Below, one piece after another: positions 150 to 22,890 of a stretch of DNA of 25,710 bases; position 1 is the first letter of the stretch, and each line of letters starts with the position of its first letter. The notes below the pieces were generated by a model. That model made no database searches. It was not told where the DNA came from and saw only the letters and a list, made by a program, of their open reading frames with translations. The translations under genes were made by a program, and so were the position numbers. The stretch comes from a virus (lineage: Duplodnaviria > Caudoviricetes), in the IMG/VR virus record IMGVR_UViG_3300025086_000209, positions 1 to 25,710 of that record, one strand, 5' to 3'.

Positions 150-1471
150 ACATAGATTTAAGGTATGTTCCGAGACAATGGCAAAAATCTTGTCATTTAA
201 ATAAAAAAAGGTTCAGTTGTTATGCACTCCATAGACGTGCTGGCAAGACTGAATTGGGATGTATGGAGCTTATACACGCAGCAATAAAGACAGATAAAGA
301 ACTAGCTATGTTTACATATGTGAGTCCTTATTTGCGACAAAGTAAAGCTATAACGTGGGCAAGATTAAAACAGAAGTTAGAGCCATTAAGAAGGGCATCA
401 GTAATTGATATAAACGAGGGTGAACTATCGGTAAGGTTTAAACATAACGGAGCGATTATCAGGCTGTTTGGTGGAGACAATCCTGATGCAATGAGGGGAT
501 TAAGATTAGATGGTTGCGTAATAGATGAAGTAGCCCAAATTAAACCAGAATTATGGATGGACATAGTTCAGCCTTGCTTATCAGACAGGCTAGGCTGGTG
601 CATTTTTATAGGTACTCCAAGCGGTATTAATTTATTTTCTGAGTTGTATTACAAGGCTATAGAAGAAGACGATTGGACAGCAGCTAGATACACGGTTTAC
701 GATACCGATTCGTTACACCCCAATGAAGTAACTCGTCTTAAACGAGACATGAGTGAGACTAGTTTCGCTCGTGAGTATTTATGTGATTTCTCAGCAGCAG
801 GGGATGACCAGTTAATTGCATTGGCAGATACCGAAGATGCAGCCAAAAGAATATACCAATCAGATCATGTGAAGATGTCTCCTGTAGTGCTAGGTATAGA
901 CCCTGCAAGGTTCGGTGATGACCGATCTGTAGTATTCCGTAGGCAGGGAAAGCAAGGCTTTAAACCTATTGTCTATCGAGGTATAGATAACATGGATCTA
1001 GCAGCAAGAGTAGCCAACCTGATAGAGGAACATAACCCTGATGCAGTCTTCTGTGATGCAGGTGCAGGTAGTGGAGTAATCGACAGACTAAGACAGTTAT
1101 CGTATGACGTAATCGAAATACCATTTGGAGGTAAGGCAACCAAACCAGAACAGTACATTAACCGTAGAACAGAGATGTGGTGGCTAATGAAACAATGGAT
1201 AGAAGAAGGAGGTGCAATACCAAACGACACAGCACTAAAACAAGAGTTAGCTACACCCATTTATTGGTACGACAATGTAGGTAGACGAGTATTGGAGAGT
1301 AAGGATCAGATAAAAAAGAGATTACAGGGTGCAGGTTCACCTGATCTAGCTGATGCACTAGCTCTAACATTTGCCCTCCCAGTAGCTAAGAAACAGCCGG
1401 AGGACATATACATCAAAAGACGTAAAGTTGCTACTCAAAAGGAGGAATATGACCCATACACCAGAATCTAA
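146..1471 (+). CDS. terL: Terminase large subunit
   Basis: Walker A HRRAGKT, Walker B CVIDE, coupling motif IGTP, RNase H-like nuclease acidic motifs GIDPARFGDD, FCDAG and SPDLADA. Confidence 0.97.
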   Translation: MNIDLRYVPRQWQKSCHLNKKRFSCYALHRRAGKTELGCMELIHAAIKTDKELAMFTYVSPYLRQSKAITWARLKQKLEPLRRASVIDINEGELSVRFKHNGAIIRLFGGDNPDAMRGLRLDGCVIDEVAQIKPELWMDIVQPCLSDRLGWCIFIGTPSGINLFSELYYKAIEEDDWTAARYTVYDTDSLHPNEVTRLKRDMSETSFAREYLCDFSAAGDDQLIALADTEDAAKRIYQSDHVKMSPVVLGIDPARFGDDRSVVFRRQGKQGFKPIVYRGIDNMDLAARVANLIEEHNPDAVFCDAGAGSGVIDRLRQLSYDVIEIPFGGKATKPEQYINRRTEMWWLMKQWIEEGGAIPNDTALKQELATPIYWYDNVGRRVLESKDQIKKRLQGAGSPDLADALALTFALPVAKKQPEDIYIKRRKVATQKEEYDPYTRI

Positions 1472-2081
1472 CTTTGTTCGTATAGCAGAAGGTCTAGATG
1501 TAGAACCATTGCTCCAATTGTTGGATGCTAAACCTGAGTTATGGAAAGAAATTCAAGAACGTCAACTATTTACTAATTCACCACATAAAGATACTGAGTC
1601 AATATTTGTTAGAGGGCCATATGCAATGAGCCATTACTACGTCATGTGGGATACAGGATCATATGACTATCCATGCATGGAATATTTGAAGGATGCATTA
1701 GTACCATTAATGCAACCAATATTAAAAAAATTAGAAGTTAAGGATATGGGCAGAGTATTAATTGTAAATTTAAGACCTAGTGGTCATGTAACCAAACATA
1801 ACGACCAAGGAAAGTATGCAGATCACTACTCAAGATTTCATATTGTACTTAAATCAAATCAATGGTGTAGCCAAACTTGCGGAGATCAAAAACAGAAGTT
1901 TGAGGTAGGTGATGTCTGGTGGTTTAACCATAAAAAATTACACACAGCAGACAATGTTGGCATGACCGACAGAGTGCATATAATATTTGATTGTGTTACC
2001 AAGTATTTTTCTATGAAAGGTGTGACCGTAAGTAGCAGTAATGCCATTACCTTTGATGAATGTGGAGTAATTAATGATTAA
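1449..2081 (+). CDS. Aspartyl/asparaginyl beta-hydroxylase-like 2OG-Fe(II) oxygenase
   Basis: HxD (KHND), RFHIVL, GDVWWFNHKKLHTADN and DRVHIIFD motifs. Start moved from 1428 to ATG 1449 because AAGGAGG lies just upstream of it. Confidence 0.85.
   Translation: MTHTPESNFVRIAEGLDVEPLLQLLDAKPELWKEIQERQLFTNSPHKDTESIFVRGPYAMSHYYVMWDTGSYDYPCMEYLKDALVPLMQPILKKLEVKDMGRVLIVNLRPSGHVTKHNDQGKYADHYSRFHIVLKSNQWCSQTCGDQKQKFEVGDVWWFNHKKLHTADNVGMTDRVHIIFDCVTKYFSMKGVTVSSSNAITFDECGVIND
2019..2053 (+). promoter_or_regulatory. Putative phage promoter copy 1: GGTGTGACCGTAA-N16-TACCTT
   Basis: Same 12-mer core and same 16-nt spacer to TAnnnT as three other copies. Lies inside the 3' end of the hydroxylase gene, upstream of the GNAT-portal block. 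Confidence 0.75.
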
Positions 2082-2523
2082 CATTAAACTCGCCACAGTT
2101 GATGAGATGTTGGCAGAAGCATCAATTTTGTTTGAAGAGCATTACACGGAAATTGCTCGAAACAAACATTTGATGGTGTTAAAACCAGACGAAGAAACCT
2201 ACCGTAAATCTGAAGAGATGGGTAGTATCTTTATTCTTTCAGCTAGGCAAGATAATGTTTTAATTGGTTACTCTGTAAATTTTGTTACTAATCATCTTCA
2301 TTACGCTGATCTTAAACTAGCCCAGAATGATCTTTTGTTTATCAAAAAAGAACATAGGGGTGGCAAGATTGGTTTAAAATTGATTAGGGAGACAGAAGCC
2401 CATGCAACATCACTCGGATGCAAATTAATGTTATGGCACGCCAAAGAAAATACGTCTTTAGCTGCGATATTACCGAGACTAAAATATGGTGTGCAAGACA
2501 TTATTTTTTCCAAGGAGTTATGA
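2074..2523 (+). CDS. GNAT-family acetyltransferase
   Basis: Acetyl-CoA-binding motif A LFIKKEHRGGKIGLKLIRETE, C-terminal RLKY, 149 aa. GGAG RBS upstream. Confidence 0.85.
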   Translation: MINIKLATVDEMLAEASILFEEHYTEIARNKHLMVLKPDEETYRKSEEMGSIFILSARQDNVLIGYSVNFVTNHLHYADLKLAQNDLLFIKKEHRGGKIGLKLIRETEAHATSLGCKLMLWHAKENTSLAAILPRLKYGVQDIIFSKEL

Positions 2524-2842: not shown

Positions 2843-4519
2843 ATGTATAAAACAAAACGAGATAAATTACTTACAAGATGGGGTCACCTTAAGTCTGAAA
2901 GGGCAACGTGGTGGTCACATTGGCAAGAAGTTACTACATATTTACTACCAAGAAACGGAAGATATTTTCAACAAGATAGAAATAAAGGTCATAGAAGACA
3001 TAATTCTATATACGACAATACTGGTACTAGAGCATTAAGAACATTGGGTGCAGGTATGATGGCAGGTGCAACAAGCCCTGCAAGACCTTGGTTTAGGCTA
3101 GGAACAGTCGACCCAGATTTAAATAAATACCCACCTGTAAAATTATGGTTAGCTGATGTAACAGAACGTATGCAGTTAGTGTTTACTAAATCTAATACAT
3201 ATAGATCATTACATGGAATGTATGAAGAATTAGGAGCATTTGGAACTGCTGGATCTATTATTTTGCCTGATAATAAAAATGCAATCCATCATTACCCAGT
3301 AACAGTAGGAGAATATGCAATAGCACAAGATTATCAGGGCAGAGTAAACACTTTGTATAGAGAGTTTCAAAAAACAGTAGGAGAAGTAGTAAGAGAATTT
3401 GGATATAACAACTGTTCAACGTCCGTTAAGAATCTGCACGACAGGGGTTCATTGGATCAATGGATTACGTTAGTTCATGCGATAGAACCAAGGGATGATA
3501 GGGAACGTGATTTTAAAAAGAAAGACAATATGAACATGGCATACAAATCTTGTTACTTTGAAACAGGTGGTGATGGCGAAAGTGTATTAAGAGAAAGCGG
3601 ATTTAAAGATTTTCCTGTAGTTGTCCCAAGATGGGGTATATCTGGTGGTGATATTTATGGCAATTCACCGGGAATGGAAGCATTAGGTGACGTAAAACAG
3701 TTACAACATGAGCAATTACGCAAAGCACAAGGCATTGATTACCAAACAAAACCACCATTACAAGTACCTAGCTATCTTAAAAACCGTGATGTAGACAGTC
3801 TTCCGGGCGGTGTTACCTTTATTGATGGTCAACAAGGCAAAATTGAGACAGCATTTAACGTAAATTTAAACTTACAACACTTGTTAATGGACATACAGGA
3901 CGTAAGGCAGCGTATTAATGGTAGTTTTTATGCTGATTTGTTTCTTATGTTGGCAAATGCTACTGATACTAGGATGACTGCAACAGAAGTAGCAGAACGA
4001 CATGAAGAAAAATTGCTTATGTTAGGCCCAGTACTGGAAAGATTACATAATGAATTGCTAGATCCATTAGTTGATATTACGTTTAGCAGAATGCTTGAGT
4101 CAGGTTTAGTACCACCAGCCCCAGAAGAGTTGCAAGGCATGGAATTAAACGTAGAATTTGTATCTATGTTGGCACAAGCGCAACGTGCAATTGGTACAAA
4201 TAGTATTGATAGGTATACAAATACAATGGGAGCTATTGCCCAGATGAAACCTGATGTCCTTGATAAATTTAATTCCGATGCATGGGCTGATGGATATGCA
4301 GATATGTTAGGAATTGACCCAGAACTAATAGTAGCCGACAAAGAAGTAGCAATAATACGTCAACAAAGAGCGCAAGCACAGCAACAAGCAGCGCAAGCCG
4401 AAGCACAACAACGTGCTGCTGAAAATGTATCTAAACTAGGCAACACTAATCCTGACAATGTTATGGATATGATGAATCAGTTTAGCGGTTACAATTCACC
4501 ATCACCAATGGAGGTATAA
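2843..4519 (+). CDS. Portal (head-tail connector) protein
   Basis: 558 aa. Motifs PRW...GDIYGNSPGMEALGDVKQLQ and MTATEVAER.EEKLLMLGPVLERL match the T7/BPP-1-type portal. Confidence 0.96.
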   Translation: MYKTKRDKLLTRWGHLKSERATWWSHWQEVTTYLLPRNGRYFQQDRNKGHRRHNSIYDNTGTRALRTLGAGMMAGATSPARPWFRLGTVDPDLNKYPPVKLWLADVTERMQLVFTKSNTYRSLHGMYEELGAFGTAGSIILPDNKNAIHHYPVTVGEYAIAQDYQGRVNTLYREFQKTVGEVVREFGYNNCSTSVKNLHDRGSLDQWITLVHAIEPRDDRERDFKKKDNMNMAYKSCYFETGGDGESVLRESGFKDFPVVVPRWGISGGDIYGNSPGMEALGDVKQLQHEQLRKAQGIDYQTKPPLQVPSYLKNRDVDSLPGGVTFIDGQQGKIETAFNVNLNLQHLLMDIQDVRQRINGSFYADLFLMLANATDTRMTATEVAERHEEKLLMLGPVLERLHNELLDPLVDITFSRMLESGLVPPAPEELQGMELNVEFVSMLAQAQRAIGTNSIDRYTNTMGAIAQMKPDVLDKFNSDAWADGYADMLGIDPELIVADKEVAIIRQQRAQAQQQAAQAEAQQRAAENVSKLGNTNPDNVMDMMNQFSGYNSPSPMEV

Positions 4520-5415: not shown

Positions 5416-5760
5416 ATGAGCGAATACAATCCTCTCGATCTTAAAAGTCAACAGAAATCTAAAGACAATAAAAAGTCCGCAGAAAGAATTGACCGACAGA
5501 ACGAAGAATCGGATATTAAATGGCTCATGAGCAGCAAGAGGGGTCGCAGATTAGTCTGGAGATTTCTGGAGCAAGCAGGTGTATTTCGATCATCGTTCAA
5601 CACTAACGCAATGGCAATGTCATTTAGCGAAGGTAACAGAAATTATGGTTTGCAATTACTTAACTTGGTTCACACTCTCTGCCCAGAACTGTATCCGACA
5701 ATGATCAAGGAGCAAAAAAATGTCAGAAACGCTGATGACGGAAGCCAACCAAACCAATGA
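5416..5760 (+). CDS. Conserved head-assembly-locus protein (BPP-1 Bbp19-like)
   Basis: DIKWLMS...GRRLVWRFLE.AGVFRSSF...M.F.EG.RN.GL motif and position directly before the scaffold. Confidence 0.8.
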   Translation: MSEYNPLDLKSQQKSKDNKKSAERIDRQNEESDIKWLMSSKRGRRLVWRFLEQAGVFRSSFNTNAMAMSFSEGNRNYGLQLLNLVHTLCPELYPTMIKEQKNVRNADDGSQPNQ

Positions 5761-14460: not shown

Positions 14461-17400
14461 ATGGAAAATAATCCTTTTTTAAAATCATCAGAATTTACAC
14501 CAAATCAAAATTATGATGAGGAAGAAAATAATCCTTTTAATAAATACTTTGAACGTGAAAATGAAAAAAGAGAAGAATTATTAAAAGGAATGCTTAAATC
14601 TGTGTCAGAAAAAGATCCAGAAAGAACAGGAGAAGCACAAAGATTATCTAAAGAATTAAATTTACCAGAAGGTGTAGGGTTAGATAGTGACGAAGCATTT
14701 AAACTTTTAAAACAAAAAAATCAAGAACAAAGTATAAGCCGAAGAAAATTAGCACAAACTAATCCAGTATTATTAAAACAATTAAATGATAGAAATTTTG
14801 CAGCTTTAGCCCATGATGATATACCAAATTTAGACAAATTCCCTAGTTTATTTGATGCAGTAAAAGGAACACCATCAAATATATCACAAGGATTAGAAGC
14901 AGGTAAATTAGACCACGAAATAGGACAATTAGGTTATTTGTTAAAAGACGGTTTTTTAGATAAAGATTTGCCAGATGGTTTTGCAGAATTTGTTACAGGC
15001 GGTAATTTTATTGGTGATAAAAATGAAATTAGAGAATTAATAAAAGAAAAAGAAGCAAGAAGAGCAGAATTAGCAGCCGATGGTTCTGGTTTTTTTGAAA
15101 GCTCTGCAAGGTTTTTAGGACAGCAATGGCAAACAATTCCATCTGCAACAGCATTTGGTATAGGTTCTGCAAAACTTGCTGGTAAAAGCCCATTGCTTGC
15201 AGGTCTCAGTTTTGGTGGTGGTTTTGCTACGAAAATGGCAATTGATGGCAATATAGTTAGTCAAGGTCATTCATATTTAGAATATATAAATACACCGGGA
15301 ATTGATGAAGAACAAGCAGCTATATATTCAGAAGGTGTTGGTATATTAAATGCCGGTTTAGAATATTTAGGTTTTAGATTTGCAACAGCACCTGCAAGAC
15401 AATTTATAAAAAATAGAATATTAAAAGCAGGTGGTGCAAAAATTGCAAAAGAATTAACAAAACCAACTACTAGAGCAGCATTTAATACTTATGGAAAACA
15501 AGTACTAGGCGCAATTTTAGGTGAAGCTAATACTGAAGTTGGACAAGAAGCTGTTCAAGTATTAGGTTTAGAATTGTCTAAAAAATTTAGTGAAGCAGAA
15601 TTAGAATCATTGTTTGCAACTCCAGAAGGCTGGAAAGAAATAGGAAACAGAATGGGAACTACATGGTTAGAAACAGTAAAAGGTATGACATTAATAGGTT
15701 TAGCAGGTGGAAGTGGCAACTTTTATGTAAATTTATCTGACGCAAAAAAATCAGTAAAAGAAACTGCATTTATTGAAAAAATTAATGAAGAAGCAAAAAA
15801 AAGCAAAGTAAAAAAAAGAAATCCAGATAAGTTTGAAAATTACATACAAGAAGTTGCTGATGGAAAAGAAATATCTAACTTTTATGTAGACGCAGTTGTA
15901 TTTAATCAACAGTTAAAAGATAGTGGTATTAGTGTTGAGCAACTAGAATTAGTGTTGCCAGAAGTAGCAGACTCTGTAAAAGATATAGAAAAAAGTGGAG
16001 GTGTAGGTGAAATTGAAATTCCTGTAGGTAAATATGGAGCTAAATTAGCAGGTACAAATTTTGGTGAATTGTTAAAACCTAATATACGTGTTTTTAGAAA
16101 AAGTAAAAGTCAATTAGAAGCTGCTGCAATTTTGAAAGAGCAAGATGCAGAACAAGCAACATTTAGAGATATGATAATGAAACAAAAACAAGCAACAGAA
16201 AAATTAGAAAACGAAACAACACAAATAAAAGAAGCAATACAACAACAACTAAAAGACACAAAATTATATTCACCTAATCAGGTCAACCTGATGTCTACAT
16301 TACCTCGTGATTTTATTTCAACAATTGCAGAAGATTTAGGTGTATCACCTAGAGAAATATTTAATAAATATTACTACAACATAGAAATGACCGATAATTT
16401 AAATATTCCTACAAGGTCATTATTTGATCAAAATGGTTTAGTAAAAATTGACACACCACAATTTAAAGAATTTTTTGGAAAATCAAAATTAAAAAATGCA
16501 GATGGTACACCACAAGTTGTATATCACGGAACTGTTGATAGTATTGATCGTTTTGATTTAGACAGTCCAAACAGATTAGATGCAGGTTATTTAGGTACTG
16601 GTGTTTATTTAACTGATAGCAAAAGTTTGGCACAAATATATGCCAGAAATAAACAATCAAAAATAAACTCAGGCAGATTAAAATCTAATGATAGCGGTGC
16701 AAAAATAATGGAATTATATGCACGATTAGAAAATCCATACAAAGCTACTATGGAAGAAAAAATACAAATACGTAATGGTGGCCGTGCAGCATCAAATGCT
16801 TTTAGAGATAAATTAGAAGCGGAAGGATATGACGGTGTAATAATGCCAGTATTAGATGGTCAAGAAATAGTTGTATTTAATACTAAAGCAGTAAAATCTA
16901 TAGAAAATAGCGGTACATGGTCATTAGAAACTGACAACCTTTACAAACAAGATTTGCAATTATTTGCACAAAGAACAAAAGAACAATCTAAAGGTAAGTT
17001 AGTACCACAAGCTGTATTTCAGTTAGCAAGAATTGTAGAAAATTTTGACTTTGCAAAAAGTAAACCGTTTGCAACTAACCGACAATTTAAATTAGAAATA
17101 CAAAACCGTGTAAAAAATGAAGCTAAAAAAGGTGGTGTTGATGTTTCTAAATTTACAGCGGAAGTAGAAAAATATCTTGTACAAACTTTATTGGCAGATG
17201 CAAATTATGCATTAATAGAAAATCCAAATGCAATAGGTTGGTATAACGAAAAAGTAACTAAAGCAATACGTTTACTTTCTCTTGTATATCCAAAACTAGC
17301 TACTGATACTAGACATGGTTTTATTTTTAAATGGGCGTTAGCAACAACAAGTAATGGTATTAAAGTAGATAAAAACTTTGAATATGCAGCAGATGTATAT

Positions 17401-20400
17401 GAAAAATGGTTGAGGTCAGAAGAAGAATTAGGAGAAGGTAAAGGAAGATTGCCAGAATTAATGCTTAACGAACAAGGCGATCCAACTGGTGGTGAATCTA
17501 GAGCAGCAATGGAAAAATCTTTTAGAAGGTTAAATGATTTATTAAATAAAAAACCTTTTAAAGAACTAGAAGAATTTATGAAAACTAAACACACAGCAAA
17601 AGAAGTTAATGAATTTGTTGGTTTAGATAGAGATGAAAAACAAATTAAAGTACCAAGTGATTTTAGTATGGGAGATATAGTCTATGGTTCTGCAATTATT
17701 GGGCCTAAAATTGGTAATGGTTTTTTTGCAAATTTATATGGAAATTATGAACAATTAACTGTAGATAGATGGGCTATGCGTACATGGGGTCGTATGACAG
17801 GTACGTTAGTTTTAGACAGAGAACGACTAGCAAAACAAAAAAGACAAAACATAAAGTCAATAATAAGAGCCTTAACTAAAGAACAAAAAAAAGCATACGA
17901 AGCATTAATAGGTAGAAAACTTTCATTAGGAGATATTGATAACGTAGCTTTAGCAATAAAAAATAAATCGGCAGGTAAAGGTGTGCCAATGCAGATGAAA
18001 ATGATAGCAAGGTTTGATGAAGATCAAAAAAATTACGATACATTTGTTGAAATAATGGGTCAACCTAGAAAAGGTGACGAAACAGTAAGTCTTGGTGATT
18101 TATTGCGTAAACAAGGTAATGGTTTAGCTAAAGACAATGATGGACAAAAAGAAACACCAAGTGGTCCTGTAGAACGTAGAAACATTGTCAAAGTATTTTC
18201 ACAAGTTTTAGAAATTTTAAATAAAGAATATCCAGATTTAACAATGGCTGATTTGCAAGCACTTGTATGGTATCCAGAAAAAAAATTATATGATTCTGCA
18301 AAATTAAAAGAAGCAGTTGTTGAAACAGGTTATGAGGATAATGAAGCACCTGATTACGCTAATGCTGCTGCCGGGTTTGTTGCTACAATGGGTATATCAG
18401 ATGATCTAATACAAAACACAATAAAAGAGGTTAATGATGAGTTACAGTCCGATGAGCAGTCAACAGGAATTCAACGAGATGATGATGGAAGAAGAGTTGA
18501 CGAAGGAGTTCGAGAAACTTACCAACAACAAGGTAGAGAAGACGCAAACATTGACGAAGGCACAGGACTCCCCCTTAACCCAGACGGAACAGTCACCGTC
18601 TACCATCACACCAGTAGAAGAAACGCAGAACGAATCAAAGCTACAGGTCAACTCAGAAGTGCTGGAGAACCTGATGTCTACGTTACCACCAGAGCTATCG
18701 CAGATACTGGATACGGCAATACAGCAGTTGCCATCAGGATCGACCCTTCTAGACTTAGTCTCGATGATGAATTCCCTAACGGACGAAAAGATTACAGACT
18801 CTCAGTTGGAAAGCCTAGAGGGTTTATTCGAGTAGATGTAGGAGAATATGTTGAAAAACAAAGTCAAATATTTTCACAACAACAAGTACCCGGAAGTTCA
18901 AGAGGTGGATTTGATCCAACTACATTAACTACTTTATTAACACAAGACTCAGACGTTTCTACATTTTTTCATGAAACAGCACACTATATGCTTAGTGTTT
19001 ATGAAGATTTAGTTAATCTAGATAATACACCACAAAAAATTAAAGATGATTTTCAAAAGTTATTAGATTTTTTTGGTGTAGAAAATCCAGAAACTTGGAG
19101 TAAATTATCACTTGAAGAAAAAAGAAAATATCACGAAGCATTTGCGTACAATTATGAAATTTATTTATTTGAAGGAAAAGCACCAGATACAAAATTACAA
19201 AGTTTATTTAATACGTTTAGTAAATGGTTAGGCAAAATATATAAATCAATTAGAGATGAATTAAATGTTATTTACAAACGTGAAAATGGTGTAGATTTAC
19301 CAATTCTTAATGATGAAATACGTGGTGTAATGGATCGCATGATTGCTAGTGAAGAAGCAATATCTCAAGCTAATTTAGTATTTGAAATGAAACCTTTGTT
19401 TGAAACACAAGAAAATAGCGGAATGAATGATACAGAATGGGCAGACTATACAAAAACAATGAAAGAAGCAGATGATAAAGCTATAGAAGAATTAAACAAA
19501 GCAAGTATGAAACAGATGGCATGGCTAGAAAAATCAAGAAATAAAGTATTAGAAAAGTTAAAAAGACAAAACAGAGCATTATTTAATAAAGTAAAAGCAG
19601 AAGAATTTGCAAAAGCACTTAAAGAAACTGCATATAGAGTTGAAGCTTATTTAAAACGTGGTGAAATAACTAACGACAATGGTCAAGTATTAGCAAAACT
19701 AGAAGGTGAAAATACAAACCGAATTAGTATTAAATCATTAGAAGATCTAATACCTTTTCACGACATGAAAAACGAAATAGCGCAATTACGCAGATTTCGT
19801 ATGGCTACAAAAAATGGTACACACGTAGCAATAATTTCAGAAATTTTTGGATATAAAACACCTATGGATATGATTAATGTTTTATTAGATTTAGAGCCAA
19901 TTAATCAATATGTAAAAGAAAAAACAGAAGCACGTATGTTGCAAGAATATAGTGGTTTGTTAGATCCACGAGAACAAGAATTAAAAGTACAAGAAGTATT
20001 GCATAATGAAGCAAGAGCAAAATTTATAGCTGTAGAATTAAAAGCATTATCTAAATCTATGCAACCAGTACGCAATCAGGTAGCTGCTGCAAAACAAGTC
20101 GCTCAAGAAATACTTGCAAAGAAAACACTTAGAGAAATAAGACCTTCTAGATTTTCACAACAAGAAGCAAAAGCAGTAAAATTAACAGAAGAAGCAATGA
20201 AAAAAGGTGAAGATGCATTAGCTATACAATACAAAAGATCACAATTATTAAATAATCAATTAGCAAAACAATCTGTAGAAATACATAGACAATATGACAA
20301 ATTTTTAAAAGGGCCAATCTCTTTAAAAAATAAATTTTTTCGTACTGATGGAAAAATAACAACTAAATCTAATCCAAGAAATATGGACATGATTAATGTT

Positions 20401-22890
20401 GGTAGAACTATTTTGGCTAGTTACAAATTAGGGCCAAAAGTAGATAATCCAAGAGTATACATAGAACAGATGAAAGAATATAACGAAGATTTATACAAAG
20501 AATTAAAACCTATTATTGATGATCAGATTAATAATAATAATAAAGATTTAAAAGATTTAACGTCAGCAGAATTTAATGATTTAGTTGAAGTAATTGAATC
20601 ACTTTGGTTTCAATCTAAAAGAATTGCACAATATAAATATGAAGGTGAAAGTTTATTAATAGATGCTGTAGTTGACGAGTCGCTTGAAACAATAAATAGA
20701 CTACCTGCTGCAAAAGAAAAAGGTGTTACAGAAGCTGCTACAAAATTAGATGAAATTCATACTGCTTTACAGAACCAAGCAAGTAGACTTACTACAATGG
20801 AAGCTTTTGCTGATCAAATAGATGGTGCAGATATTAAAGGTGGAGAAATAGGAGATGTTGTTTTAAGACGTAGTGATGGTATGGCAGGGCCAATTACAAG
20901 ATATATTTACAGACCAATAAAAAATGCACTTGATGCTTACCGTGTAGAACAAGTTAAATACACAAAAAAATATGCTGAAATGTTAGATTCTGTAGATTTT
21001 GGTGAAAATAGAATTTACTCAGGAGAATTAAATTATAACTTTGGTAAAGACAGTAATGGTAGAGGTAAAGTTGAATTACTTGGAGCTATGTTGCATACAG
21101 GTAATGAAAGTAATTTAAAAAAATTATTATTAGGTAGAAAATGGGGAAAATTAAATGAAGATGGTACTTTAGATAAAACAAGATGGACTACTTTTGTAGA
21201 GCGTATGGAAGCTGAAGGACATCTTACAAAAACTGATTATGATTTTATACAAAGCGTTTGGGATTTAACAGCAGATATGTTACCTATTGCACAAAGAGCG
21301 CATAAAGATATTTTTGGATATTATTTTAAAGTAGTAGAATTGAAACCTTTTACTAATAGATTTGGTACATATAAAGGTGGTTATGTACCTGCCAAAGTTG
21401 ACCCAAGAGTAGTAAAAGATGCAGAACGAAATGCCAAACTTGAAGATTTAAGATCTGAATTTAAACAGTCATTACCTTCTACAGGAAAAGGTTTTACAGA
21501 AACTCGTGTTGAATATAATAAAGCACTTTCATTACATTTAAATTCAATGGTAAAACATATAGATGATGTCTTGCGTTTTGCTGTAGTTCAACCTGTAATA
21601 GAAGACGTTTTAAAAGTAGTAAAAAATAAAAGATTTGCAGAAGCTTTAGAAACTGTAGCACCGGGCAAAATGGACTATACAATATTGCCTTGGTTAAATA
21701 CTTCTGCACGACAATTAACAATGTTGCGTGGACAAAATGCATTAGCAGATAAATTATTTAAATATGTAAAAGGTAGTTTCGGTCGCAACACTATGTTTGG
21801 TAATTTTCAAAATGCTCTACAACAATTTACAGGTTGGAGTCCTTCGTTAATTAAAGTAGAACGTAAACATCTATGGAGTGGTTTTAGAAAATACTTTAGT
21901 GAGCCAAAAGAAACATCTGAGTTTATTGCACGATTGTCACCTTTTATGGCAAATAGACAAGTAAATCAAATGTTTGACATACAAGAAACATTAAATGATT
22001 TAATTATAAATCCTAATAAATTTGTTCAAACAAAAGCATGGCTAAGACAACACGCATATTTTATACAAACTGCATTTCAAAACATGGTAGACGGTGTTAC
22101 TTGGATAGGTGCGTATAACCAATTTTTAACAAACAGACCTCAAGGATTAACAGAAGCACAAGCAAATAAAGAAGCTATAGCACAAGCAGATGCTGCCGTG
22201 CGTTTAACACAAGATAGTTTACAGCCAGAAGACAGAGCAGCCTATCAAACAGATACACCATTAATGCAATCTATGCTGCAATTTACAAGTTATTTCAACA
22301 CAATAGCTAATTTAGATCTTGGACAATATAAAAAACAAATTAGAGATATGGGATTTAAACCAAATAATAAAGGATCAGCACAACTGTTATACACATTTAT
22401 GTTTGGTTTATATCTACCTGCTGTCGTTTCTGGAATAATAGTGCAAACAATGGGCGGTAATTTACAGGACGCAGATGAAGATGGTTGGTTAGATGAAATA
22501 GCTGAAATAATGCTTATGGAGCCATTACGATTTGGCCTTAACTTTATACCCGGTGGTAACATTTTACCAGTACCTTTTAATGTGTTAAATGACAAACCAT
22601 ATGATGATCGTATTACTACTAGTCCTTCTATATCAAATATAGAAAGTTCAACGACAGGTAGTGTTCGTGCGTTGCAAGCTGTTATAGACCCTGATAAAGA
22701 AGTGTCAGGTAAGAACATAAGAGATGTATTTACTTTGTTATCGTTACTTAGTGATTTACCACTAACACTTATTGGCAGACCTTTAAGTTATTTTAGAGAT
22801 GTACAAAGTGGGGCTGTAACTCCAGATGGCCCTCTTGATTTTATTAGAGGTTTAGCTACAGGCAAAACAGGACGGAAACAAAGAAATTAA
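14461..22890 (+). CDS. Giant internal virion/ejection protein (T7 gp16-like position) with polyvalent-protein domains: ART-like, HhH-like, second ART-like, HExxH zincin-like
   Basis: 2809 aa. VVYHGT...GTGVYLT...GYDGVI...EIVVF (~16450-16925), GPKIG/TVDRW/LQALVW (17701-18270), TVYHHT...DVYVTT (18577-18800), STFFHETAH (HETAH 18970-18984). Confidence 0.85.
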   Translation: MENNPFLKSSEFTPNQNYDEEENNPFNKYFERENEKREELLKGMLKSVSEKDPERTGEAQRLSKELNLPEGVGLDSDEAFKLLKQKNQEQSISRRKLAQTNPVLLKQLNDRNFAALAHDDIPNLDKFPSLFDAVKGTPSNISQGLEAGKLDHEIGQLGYLLKDGFLDKDLPDGFAEFVTGGNFIGDKNEIRELIKEKEARRAELAADGSGFFESSARFLGQQWQTIPSATAFGIGSAKLAGKSPLLAGLSFGGGFATKMAIDGNIVSQGHSYLEYINTPGIDEEQAAIYSEGVGILNAGLEYLGFRFATAPARQFIKNRILKAGGAKIAKELTKPTTRAAFNTYGKQVLGAILGEANTEVGQEAVQVLGLELSKKFSEAELESLFATPEGWKEIGNRMGTTWLETVKGMTLIGLAGGSGNFYVNLSDAKKSVKETAFIEKINEEAKKSKVKKRNPDKFENYIQEVADGKEISNFYVDAVVFNQQLKDSGISVEQLELVLPEVADSVKDIEKSGGVGEIEIPVGKYGAKLAGTNFGELLKPNIRVFRKSKSQLEAAAILKEQDAEQATFRDMIMKQKQATEKLENETTQIKEAIQQQLKDTKLYSPNQVNLMSTLPRDFISTIAEDLGVSPREIFNKYYYNIEMTDNLNIPTRSLFDQNGLVKIDTPQFKEFFGKSKLKNADGTPQVVYHGTVDSIDRFDLDSPNRLDAGYLGTGVYLTDSKSLAQIYARNKQSKINSGRLKSNDSGAKIMELYARLENPYKATMEEKIQIRNGGRAASNAFRDKLEAEGYDGVIMPVLDGQEIVVFNTKAVKSIENSGTWSLETDNLYKQDLQLFAQRTKEQSKGKLVPQAVFQLARIVENFDFAKSKPFATNRQFKLEIQNRVKNEAKKGGVDVSKFTAEVEKYLVQTLLADANYALIENPNAIGWYNEKVTKAIRLLSLVYPKLATDTRHGFIFKWALATTSNGIKVDKNFEYAADVYEKWLRSEEELGEGKGRLPELMLNEQGDPTGGESRAAMEKSFRRLNDLLNKKPFKELEEFMKTKHTAKEVNEFVGLDRDEKQIKVPSDFSMGDIVYGSAIIGPKIGNGFFANLYGNYEQLTVDRWAMRTWGRMTGTLVLDRERLAKQKRQNIKSIIRALTKEQKKAYEALIGRKLSLGDIDNVALAIKNKSAGKGVPMQMKMIARFDEDQKNYDTFVEIMGQPRKGDETVSLGDLLRKQGNGLAKDNDGQKETPSGPVERRNIVKVFSQVLEILNKEYPDLTMADLQALVWYPEKKLYDSAKLKEAVVETGYEDNEAPDYANAAAGFVATMGISDDLIQNTIKEVNDELQSDEQSTGIQRDDDGRRVDEGVRETYQQQGREDANIDEGTGLPLNPDGTVTVYHHTSRRNAERIKATGQLRSAGEPDVYVTTRAIADTGYGNTAVAIRIDPSRLSLDDEFPNGRKDYRLSVGKPRGFIRVDVGEYVEKQSQIFSQQQVPGSSRGGFDPTTLTTLLTQDSDVSTFFHETAHYMLSVYEDLVNLDNTPQKIKDDFQKLLDFFGVENPETWSKLSLEEKRKYHEAFAYNYEIYLFEGKAPDTKLQSLFNTFSKWLGKIYKSIRDELNVIYKRENGVDLPILNDEIRGVMDRMIASEEAISQANLVFEMKPLFETQENSGMNDTEWADYTKTMKEADDKAIEELNKASMKQMAWLEKSRNKVLEKLKRQNRALFNKVKAEEFAKALKETAYRVEAYLKRGEITNDNGQVLAKLEGENTNRISIKSLEDLIPFHDMKNEIAQLRRFRMATKNGTHVAIISEIFGYKTPMDMINVLLDLEPINQYVKEKTEARMLQEYSGLLDPREQELKVQEVLHNEARAKFIAVELKALSKSMQPVRNQVAAAKQVAQEILAKKTLREIRPSRFSQQEAKAVKLTEEAMKKGEDALAIQYKRSQLLNNQLAKQSVEIHRQYDKFLKGPISLKNKFFRTDGKITTKSNPRNMDMINVGRTILASYKLGPKVDNPRVYIEQMKEYNEDLYKELKPIIDDQINNNNKDLKDLTSAEFNDLVEVIESLWFQSKRIAQYKYEGESLLIDAVVDESLETINRLPAAKEKGVTEAATKLDEIHTALQNQASRLTTMEAFADQIDGADIKGGEIGDVVLRRSDGMAGPITRYIYRPIKNALDAYRVEQVKYTKKYAEMLDSVDFGENRIYSGELNYNFGKDSNGRGKVELLGAMLHTGNESNLKKLLLGRKWGKLNEDGTLDKTRWTTFVERMEAEGHLTKTDYDFIQSVWDLTADMLPIAQRAHKDIFGYYFKVVELKPFTNRFGTYKGGYVPAKVDPRVVKDAERNAKLEDLRSEFKQSLPSTGKGFTETRVEYNKALSLHLNSMVKHIDDVLRFAVVQPVIEDVLKVVKNKRFAEALETVAPGKMDYTILPWLNTSARQLTMLRGQNALADKLFKYVKGSFGRNTMFGNFQNALQQFTGWSPSLIKVERKHLWSGFRKYFSEPKETSEFIARLSPFMANRQVNQMFDIQETLNDLIINPNKFVQTKAWLRQHAYFIQTAFQNMVDGVTWIGAYNQFLTNRPQGLTEAQANKEAIAQADAAVRLTQDSLQPEDRAAYQTDTPLMQSMLQFTSYFNTIANLDLGQYKKQIRDMGFKPNNKGSAQLLYTFMFGLYLPAVVSGIIVQTMGGNLQDADEDGWLDEIAEIMLMEPLRFGLNFIPGGNILPVPFNVLNDKPYDDRITTSPSISNIESSTTGSVRALQAVIDPDKEVSGKNIRDVFTLLSLLSDLPLTLIGRPLSYFRDVQSGAVTPDGPLDFIRGLATGKTGRKQRN
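18434..18835 (+). CDS. Candidate nested gene in +1 frame: 133-aa acidic helical protein
   Basis: AAGAGG precedes tandem ATGs (18434/18437). Stop-free for 133 codons, with amphipathic-looking helices. Coincides with a codon-usage anomaly in the host frame. Confidence 0.55.
   Translation: MMSYSPMSSQQEFNEMMMEEELTKEFEKLTNNKVEKTQTLTKAQDSPLTQTEQSPSTITPVEETQNESKLQVNSEVLENLMSTLPPELSQILDTAIQQLPSGSTLLDLVSMMNSLTDEKITDSQLESLEGLFE

Follow-up and report, generated by a model that had tools for sequence, protein, structure and literature searches.

A +1-frame gene nested in a giant podovirus-like polyvalent protein, linked to the preceding DUF7178-like domain and predicted to bind it

Results

The host gene and its neighbourhood

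The window, by which we mean the whole stretch of 25,710 bases analysed here, is a podovirus-like genome fragment from a virus record and carries terminase and major head genes as recognized by PHROGs. The gene under study, referred to as the host gene (Table 1), encodes a protein that is probably virion-internal or ejected, as judged from its size and its position between tail-like genes and a fibre-like gene. Based on gene order and on the description of polyvalent proteins of phages and conjugative elements (PMC5512222), a packaged and ejected polyvalent protein is the most likely assignment. The host protein shares with the proteins treated in the main text of that article the ART-PolyVal and LPD22 domains and the swapping of domains, which is also seen among its own relatives, and it combines several conflict domains and LPD domains within one large protein of the virion region. 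The main text of PMC5512222 does not contain the word "glycosylase", and those of its passages on antitoxins, immunity, nesting and reading frames that were covered describe no gene nested in polyvalent proteins. A match to ART-PolyVal was found in 69 of 80 relatives (the best 80 of 145); contig ends account for some of the 11 misses.

Directly after the terminase gene, two small ORFs (window positions 1428-2523) resemble by eye what we take to be a beta-hydroxylase and a GNAT acetyltransferase. A 39-kb phage with a giant polyvalent gene, GenBank PQ492659.1, is filed under Inoviridae in its taxonomy line and looks misassigned.

Table 1. Positions of the host gene, its domains and the nested gene in the window.
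Feature	Position	Strand	Description
Host gene	14461..22890	+	2809-aa polyvalent protein; Pfam LPD22 and ART-PolyVal; phrog_9880 (unknown function)
ART-PolyVal domain	16498..16911	+	host aa 680-817; E 2.6e-18; separate, optional ART without nested ORF
Upstream all-helical DUF7178-like domain	17008..18435	+	host aa 850-1325; predicted peptide partner; HhH-GPD-like by motif only
GPKIG...TVDRW motif	17701..17772	+	contains K1083 and D1102; putative catalytic pocket; contacted by the modelled peptide
Shine-Dalgarno-like site AAGAGGT	18425..18431	+	AGGAGGT in most relatives
Nested gene	18434..18835	+	+1 frame of host ORF 14461-22890; 133 aa, probably 132 aa from ATG 18437
Conserved core of nested protein	18434..18529	+	aa 1-32; P-x-S-x-Q-[QE]-E-x-[ND]-E, then acidic helix; predicted binder of upstream domain; host frame a free linker
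ART-like (HYD-type/Tpt1-like) mobile domain	18565..18840	+	host aa 1369-1460; nested gene overprints it in this clade alone
C-terminal four-helix part of nested protein (clade-specific)	18653..18832	+	aa 74-133; constrained in both frames
Conserved C-terminal half of host protein	18856..22869	+	phrog_9880; HExxH-like motif at 18970

An open +1 frame with its own start signal

A sequence-only reading of the window had pointed to a 133-codon ORF in the +1 frame of the host gene, preceded by an SD-like AAGAGG, and had interpreted it as a possible immunity gene encoded on the same DNA as an ART-like toxin domain. The ORF was recovered at the proposed place in the frame of the 2809-aa ORF, and its 136-codon open stretch is the longest of the +1 frame of the host gene, the runner-up extending over 49 codons. 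Leu, Val and Ile codons preceding a purine give rise to a +1 stop in 257 of 367 cases elsewhere versus 0 of 14 inside the nested ORF, which bears out the remark that the frame is constantly closed except here. When the host codons were re-drawn synonymously according to the codon usage of the gene itself, none of 20,000 runs left the +1 frame open; uniform usage did so in 0.15% and local third-base weights in 0.075%. The GC counts quoted in the sequence-only reading, 34/60 at 18541-18600 versus 13/60 at 19021-19080, are correct upon recounting, and the other +1 overlap to which it referred, at 5720-5760, is present.

Translation of the nested gene likely starts at the second ATG (18437), since the gap of 5 nt following AAGAGGT corresponds to the spacing in relatives, where AGGAGGT is found about 5 nt upstream of an ATG, TTG or GTG. 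The Glu codon that forms the Shine-Dalgarno site is GAG in 102 of 104 loci, compared with 327 of 3320 among the remaining Glu codons of the upstream domain. A Shine-Dalgarno score of at least 5/6 was obtained for all 122 loci of the clade with the ART-like insert and for 45 of 100 loci lacking the insert; of the latter, 97 have a start codon near the peptide motif described below and three have none. In L282-L285 and L292-L306 the motif is kept together with a weak Shine-Dalgarno site or an absent start codon, and the peptide may begin farther ahead or be read in another way. Programmed frameshifting out of the host frame was considered as well and rejected, since a +1 stop is located 1-4 codons ahead of the nested start in many loci.

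The deduced protein is acidic (24 D/E versus 7 K/R), as had been noted. Its presumed helical nature applies to parts of the chain: a single-sequence AF2 prediction (pLDDT 63.8, pTM 0.34) gave a confident helix for residues 8-36 and four short helices within 74-132, whereas residues 36-68 appear as low-confidence coil. Pfam, PHROGs and homologue searches identified no family and no relative beyond the same type of locus; the only Pfam match was DUF3835 with E 0.014, PHROGs gave none, and the homologues retrieved with the nested protein were unnamed proteins of the same kind. At the RNA level, 6-13% of the words were present in five runs, and the contigs from four of them were short and of low depth.

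Selection on the nested frame

Relatives were taken as the best 80 of 145 loci from a search with the host-frame ART-like domain. Among these 80, the +1 frame is open across the core of the ART-like domain in 78 and ends with the same stop, at the end of that domain, in 76; the two loci that are not open throughout are L045, where a stop comes 11 codons too soon, and L070, which is GC-rich. Over 82 non-redundant loci, with the window's own sequence (L001) counted among the loci, 1 stop per 1254 opportunities was encountered in the nested frame, compared with 63-70% in the flanks. Conservation of the +1 ORF among aligned relatives, named in the sequence-only reading as a check on its gene, is observed in this set, and the suppression of synonymous variation that it named alongside is seen in parts of the nested protein, as detailed in the following for three sections. 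Loci with too little flank and near-identical loci were left out of the pairs used.

For nested aa 1-30, 39 independent pairs yielded a nested NN/NS of 0.30 (0.19-0.43) versus 0.61-0.63 in the flanks, a host ratio of 1.36 and a host-synonymous change of 0.059 versus 0.24 and 0.30 in the flanks, and the most variable base is the wobble position of the nested codons. As read from these substitutions, selection over the first 30 codons clearly acts on the nested and not on the host frame, and the host-frame "linker" would thus be a shadow of the nested protein. Nested aa 44-74 (NN/NS 0.58-0.64) are unconstrained except for staying open. For aa 75-133, host-synonymous change is again low (0.10 versus 0.23 and 0.30 in the flanks), and SN/SS of 0.23 (0.16-0.34) versus 0.82-0.92 indicates by this measure a constraint in both frames, while NN/NS of 0.51-0.55 is the same as in controls. 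Clades without the ART-like insert behave similarly at the nested N-terminus: the clade found with Limnohabitans phage DC33 has an NN/NS of 0.09 versus 0.74-0.75 for nested aa 1-12 (16 pairs), and an intermediate clade one of 0.34 versus 0.67-0.94 (11 pairs). NTA codons inside the ART-like domain are avoided before pyrimidines too, where no stop could form (0/162 and 2/242, few shared sites), such that the codon use of a GC-richer donor may have eased overprinting. Taken together, the ORF, its ribosome-binding site and the protein-level selection establish, on sequence grounds, that the nested gene is real.

Linkage to the upstream domain

Searches with the upstream domain provided 224 distinct loci, exact duplicates and loci too short behind the anchor being left out, among them loci in which other domains follow the upstream domain. 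A +1 peptide with the motif Q-[QE]-x-x-[ND] is located directly behind the upstream domain in 222 of them, 122 with and 100 without the ART-like insert; the two misses are L218, which is frameshifted, and L298. Motif, start codon and open frame coincide in 219 of the 224 loci versus 0-11 of 211-224 in 13 control windows. Where lengths were compared, the nested product comprises 24-85 aa without and 119-138 aa with the insert, its start codon varies between ATG, TTG and GTG, and the peptide is conserved across GC3 values of 0.15-0.95 and in front of differing downstream domains. The strict linkage expected of a toxin-immunity pair, with the inhibitor directly behind its domain, is accordingly found with the upstream domain. 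The frameshift of L218 lies in the linker and fuses the nested start with the ART frame, and the host gene of L406 is interrupted by an in-frame TGA 99 codons past the anchor; either may reflect an error in the sequence.

A search seeded with Limnohabitans phage DC33 (L348) detected the peptide in 66 of 66 distinct loci, in 59 of which a second conserved module, ...PGLT...GF, terminates it. In L348 and L353-L425 the nested protein has about 70 aa and a C-terminal module DPI..AM...PGLT...A..MA...GF that belongs to no Pfam or PHROG family; an alignment of this type produced single weak matches only. Four GenBank records containing the domain, that of DC33 among them, annotate nothing but the giant CDS over the nested stretch. 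At about 28-30% identity (L433-L436) a +1 peptide is, by eye, still found at the same place, and in L351 (Octadecabacter Antarctic BD virus 1, gp16; ~3780-3930) a +1 stretch behind the domain resembles these peptides, with an unclear start codon. Another arrangement occurs in L438, where an upstream-type domain forms the C-terminus of an 832-aa protein and is overlapped by an acidic ORF of 65 aa that has an AGGAG. This ORF is without visible homology to the nested peptide, and the region L438:3167-3407 may represent the system in its ordinary toxin-immunity form. No second recurring family of SD-led nested ORFs emerged when 574 AT-rich host ORFs (redundancy included) were scanned, and generality to other domains is therefore not supported.

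The overprinted ART-like domain

The ART-like domain contains H, Y and DE residues that are invariant in 24 rows and may correspond to the HYD-type pattern of H in strand 1, Y in strand 2 and a later acidic residue. It scores 0.93 in Atlas to a cluster that is 83% Tox-ART-HYD1 and 0.94 to one that is 16% PARP, matches Pfam Tpt1/KptA with E 0.081 and forms a family of 451 clusters at 50% identity. Many members are stand-alone proteins of about 110 aa (such as P0005-P0037), one of them labelled TPT1/KptA by JGI, and the polyvalent proteins P0131 and P0174 carry the ART-like domain before, not after, a DUF7178-like domain.

A built-in partner gene on the same DNA, as proposed in the sequence-only reading, is supported, but the nested peptide tracks the upstream domain and not the ART-like domain that had been named as its partner. 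In the distant ART loci inspected (L255, cut at the contig start, and L257, a weak 28-residue match, being excluded) the +1 frame meets stops within the first 40 codons of the domain in 10 of 10 cases, and the peptide is conversely present in the 100 loci without the insert. Nor is it supported that the ART-like domain and the nested gene move as one cassette, as had been suggested: among 150 ART-bearing cluster representatives, which include fragments, the upstream domain is present in only 5, three of them having it directly before the ART-like domain. The nested gene is thus linked, as the loci compared here show, to the upstream rather than to the ART-like domain.

L163 and L165 have an ART-like domain without the YHH, VYVTT and GYG motifs and a nearly unchanged nested protein, and the host frame may be decaying there under the overprinted gene. 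The ART-like domain is just 64-67% identical in L163, L165, L178, L179 and L181. In L080, L137, L138, L141 and L154 a 6-codon insertion and a different C-terminus of the ART-like domain are found, with both frames still open.

The upstream DUF7178-like domain

AF2 predicts the upstream domain to be all-helical (pLDDT 89.7, pTM 0.84). DUF7178 matches weakly, below cut-off, in 23 of 43 members. The G, K, G, T, D and W of the motif listed in Table 1 are invariant in 20 diverse members, as is QA-x-x-W, and the spacing between K and D is 18-21 in 20 of 20 rows. The pattern G-x-K-x-G...T-x-D-x-W is presumably that of the catalytic Lys and Asp of HhH-GPD glycosylases/lyases (PF00730), and the motif resembles by eye that of the Nth-type protein L439. 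The all-helical model, the pattern and the K-D spacing are shared with HhH-GPD glycosylases and AP lyases such as endonuclease III; the upstream domain differs from these in large insertions, in the lack of a noted Fe-S motif and in the lack of a statistical match. In particular, Foldseek with the 476-aa model gave no match at E<=0.001 (best E 0.5), hhalign against six HhH-GPD proteins performed no better than the reversed control, the PF00730 profile did not match, and searches of PDB sequences, NCBIfam and PADLOC returned nothing significant. As the motif pattern is present, the sequence and profile comparisons are negative and Foldseek gave no match at its threshold, we keep "glycosylase-like" as a lead, with roughly even prospects, and not as a statement of membership.

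The predicted complex

Co-folding of nested aa 1-40 with the upstream domain resulted in an ipSAE of 0.87, the best of three controls reaching 0.00; the ipSAE mark is attained by 116 of 157 solved pairs and 2 of 215 mismatched ones, a calibration that is only rough with custom alignments. The runs share at least 84% of their contacts, with a partner pLDDT of at least 73. In the model, Q10, the sole invariant residue of the peptide, touches G1081, P1082 and K1083. Also part of the interface are D1102, R1103 and the DGQKE stretch, which are invariant in the alignment of 43 rows. Mean conservation is 0.67 for the predicted interface versus 0.66 for the rest of the domain, and its charge composition is 8 D/E and 9 K/R; being neither extra conserved nor net basic, the interface does not support simple DNA mimicry. 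The N-terminal helix of the nested protein is thus predicted to bind the conserved GPKIG/xDRW pocket of the upstream domain.

Discussion

Judged from sequence comparison and modelling, the evidence appears strong for the gene and good for its partner. The small +1 gene starts right behind an enzyme-like domain of a giant protein, and we consider it probable, with appreciable room for doubt, that its product is the cognate inhibitor of this domain and caps the pocket until packaging. In this scenario the upstream domain acts on DNA in the manner of a glycosylase or AP lyase and, if active during synthesis of the giant protein, would be detrimental to the infected cell or to the DNA of the phage itself. 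Made from the same mRNA, the peptide would plug the conserved pocket with its N-terminal helix and keep the domain inactive until packaging; once ejected into the next host, the domain would be free of its inhibitor and act. Because the domain is internal to a polyprotein, an immunity gene would only be possible in another frame, and because it is forced into another frame, the host frame would cross it as a linker.

The most serious competitor, which we nevertheless regard as unlikely, is that the nested protein binds the upstream domain as a folding, assembly or packaging chaperone, or regulates it as a domain with a harmless role in repair or structure, instead of serving as an antidote. 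The evidence for a real gene, for its linkage and for binding fits this reading equally well, neither Foldseek nor hhalign assigned an activity to the upstream domain, and the second module of the DC33 clade suggests a further role of the peptide. However, the modelled contacts centre on the invariant K1083 and D1102, as those of an active-site plug would, the gene accompanies one mobile domain across many architectures, and L438 has the appearance of a toxin-immunity pair.

A partnership with the overlapped ART-like domain, the two moving as a cassette, is less probable still, also in the weaker form in which aa 74-133 have the ART-like domain as an additional binding partner. The common end of ORF and domain in most relatives (76 of the best 80 of 145) and the low host-synonymous change and SN/SS over aa 75-133 would agree with it, but the NN/NS of this section is no different from controls, the nested ORF is absent from the ten distant ART loci inspected, the upstream domain is rare among ART-bearing representatives, and the peptide persists where the insert is lacking and where the ART motifs have decayed. 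To the view that no protein is made, the +1 frame being open as a side effect of GC-richer donor codons within the ART insert and of low complexity in the linker, we attach very little probability. GC-rich ART homologues do have +1 open runs of 18-142 codons, NTA codons are avoided also where no stop could form, and nested aa 44-74 are unconstrained; against this view stand the Shine-Dalgarno site conserved with a rare GAG codon in front of variable start codons, the switch of codon-position variability to the nested frame in aa 1-30, the maintenance of the peptide over the whole GC3 range and before differing domains, and the low fraction of open frames under the third-base-matched null.

The proposed inhibitor gene has counterparts in several known systems. 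In polymorphic toxin-immunity pairs and Rpn toxins a cognate inhibitor is encoded directly behind or within the gene of the toxin domain, the toxin being C-terminal in the former and the internal antitoxin being in frame in the latter. L438 shares the ordinary layout of polymorphic toxin-immunity pairs, whereas in the locus described here the domain is internal, the inhibitor out of frame and the host frame reads through. The embedded spanins Rz/Rz1 of phage lambda are likewise two interacting phage proteins from one DNA stretch in different frames, but they are co-operating lysis subunits and not, as proposed here, an enzyme and its inhibitor. According to a recent preprint, the out-of-frame internal product of Synechocystis Slr0489L/S binds the host-frame protein and neutralizes its toxicity, and the slr0489, slr1079 and slr1082 genes-in-genes encode chromosomal membrane proteins of about 150 aa that are likened to spanins (bioRxiv 10.64898/2025.12.20.695498). 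The likeness to these pairs, as portrayed there, consists in a gene that lies internally and out of frame and has a product binding to the host-frame protein, which here is predicted; the difference lies in a soluble domain within a 2800-aa phage protein and in a pair that is itself predicted. Interacting genes-in-genes are therefore already known, while searches of the open-licence literature, supplements aside, yielded neither an account of an inhibitor encoded out of frame within a polyvalent phage protein nor one of DUF7178.

The natural series formed by the terminal pair of L438, the short nested peptides and the long version over the ART-like insert is of use for the study of overlapping-gene evolution. 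We envisage a history in which a terminal pair like that of L438 became fused by read-through; in the AT-rich clade an ART-like module was then likely inserted into the linker, and the nested gene would have been extended over the insert and gained its C-terminal helical part. If this history and the inhibitor role hold true, a nested gene could acquire further domains de novo across a module that was inserted behind it, and such linkers of polyvalent proteins would be places of unannotated immunity genes. The gene reported here is absent from the inspected annotations, yet occurs in more than 200 loci. Limnohabitans phage DC33 is cultured and carries the nested gene, so that its translation and a rescue are testable. 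The complete picture, in which widespread aquatic podophages bring along in their ejection protein a new DNA-attacking enzyme that is silenced during assembly by an out-of-frame active-site plug hidden in a linker, is conceivable and in our estimation falls somewhat short of probable. The inhibitor reading as such would point to a function for DUF7178-like domains and offer an answer to the question of how an internal toxic domain of a virion protein can be made without poisoning the cell that produces it.
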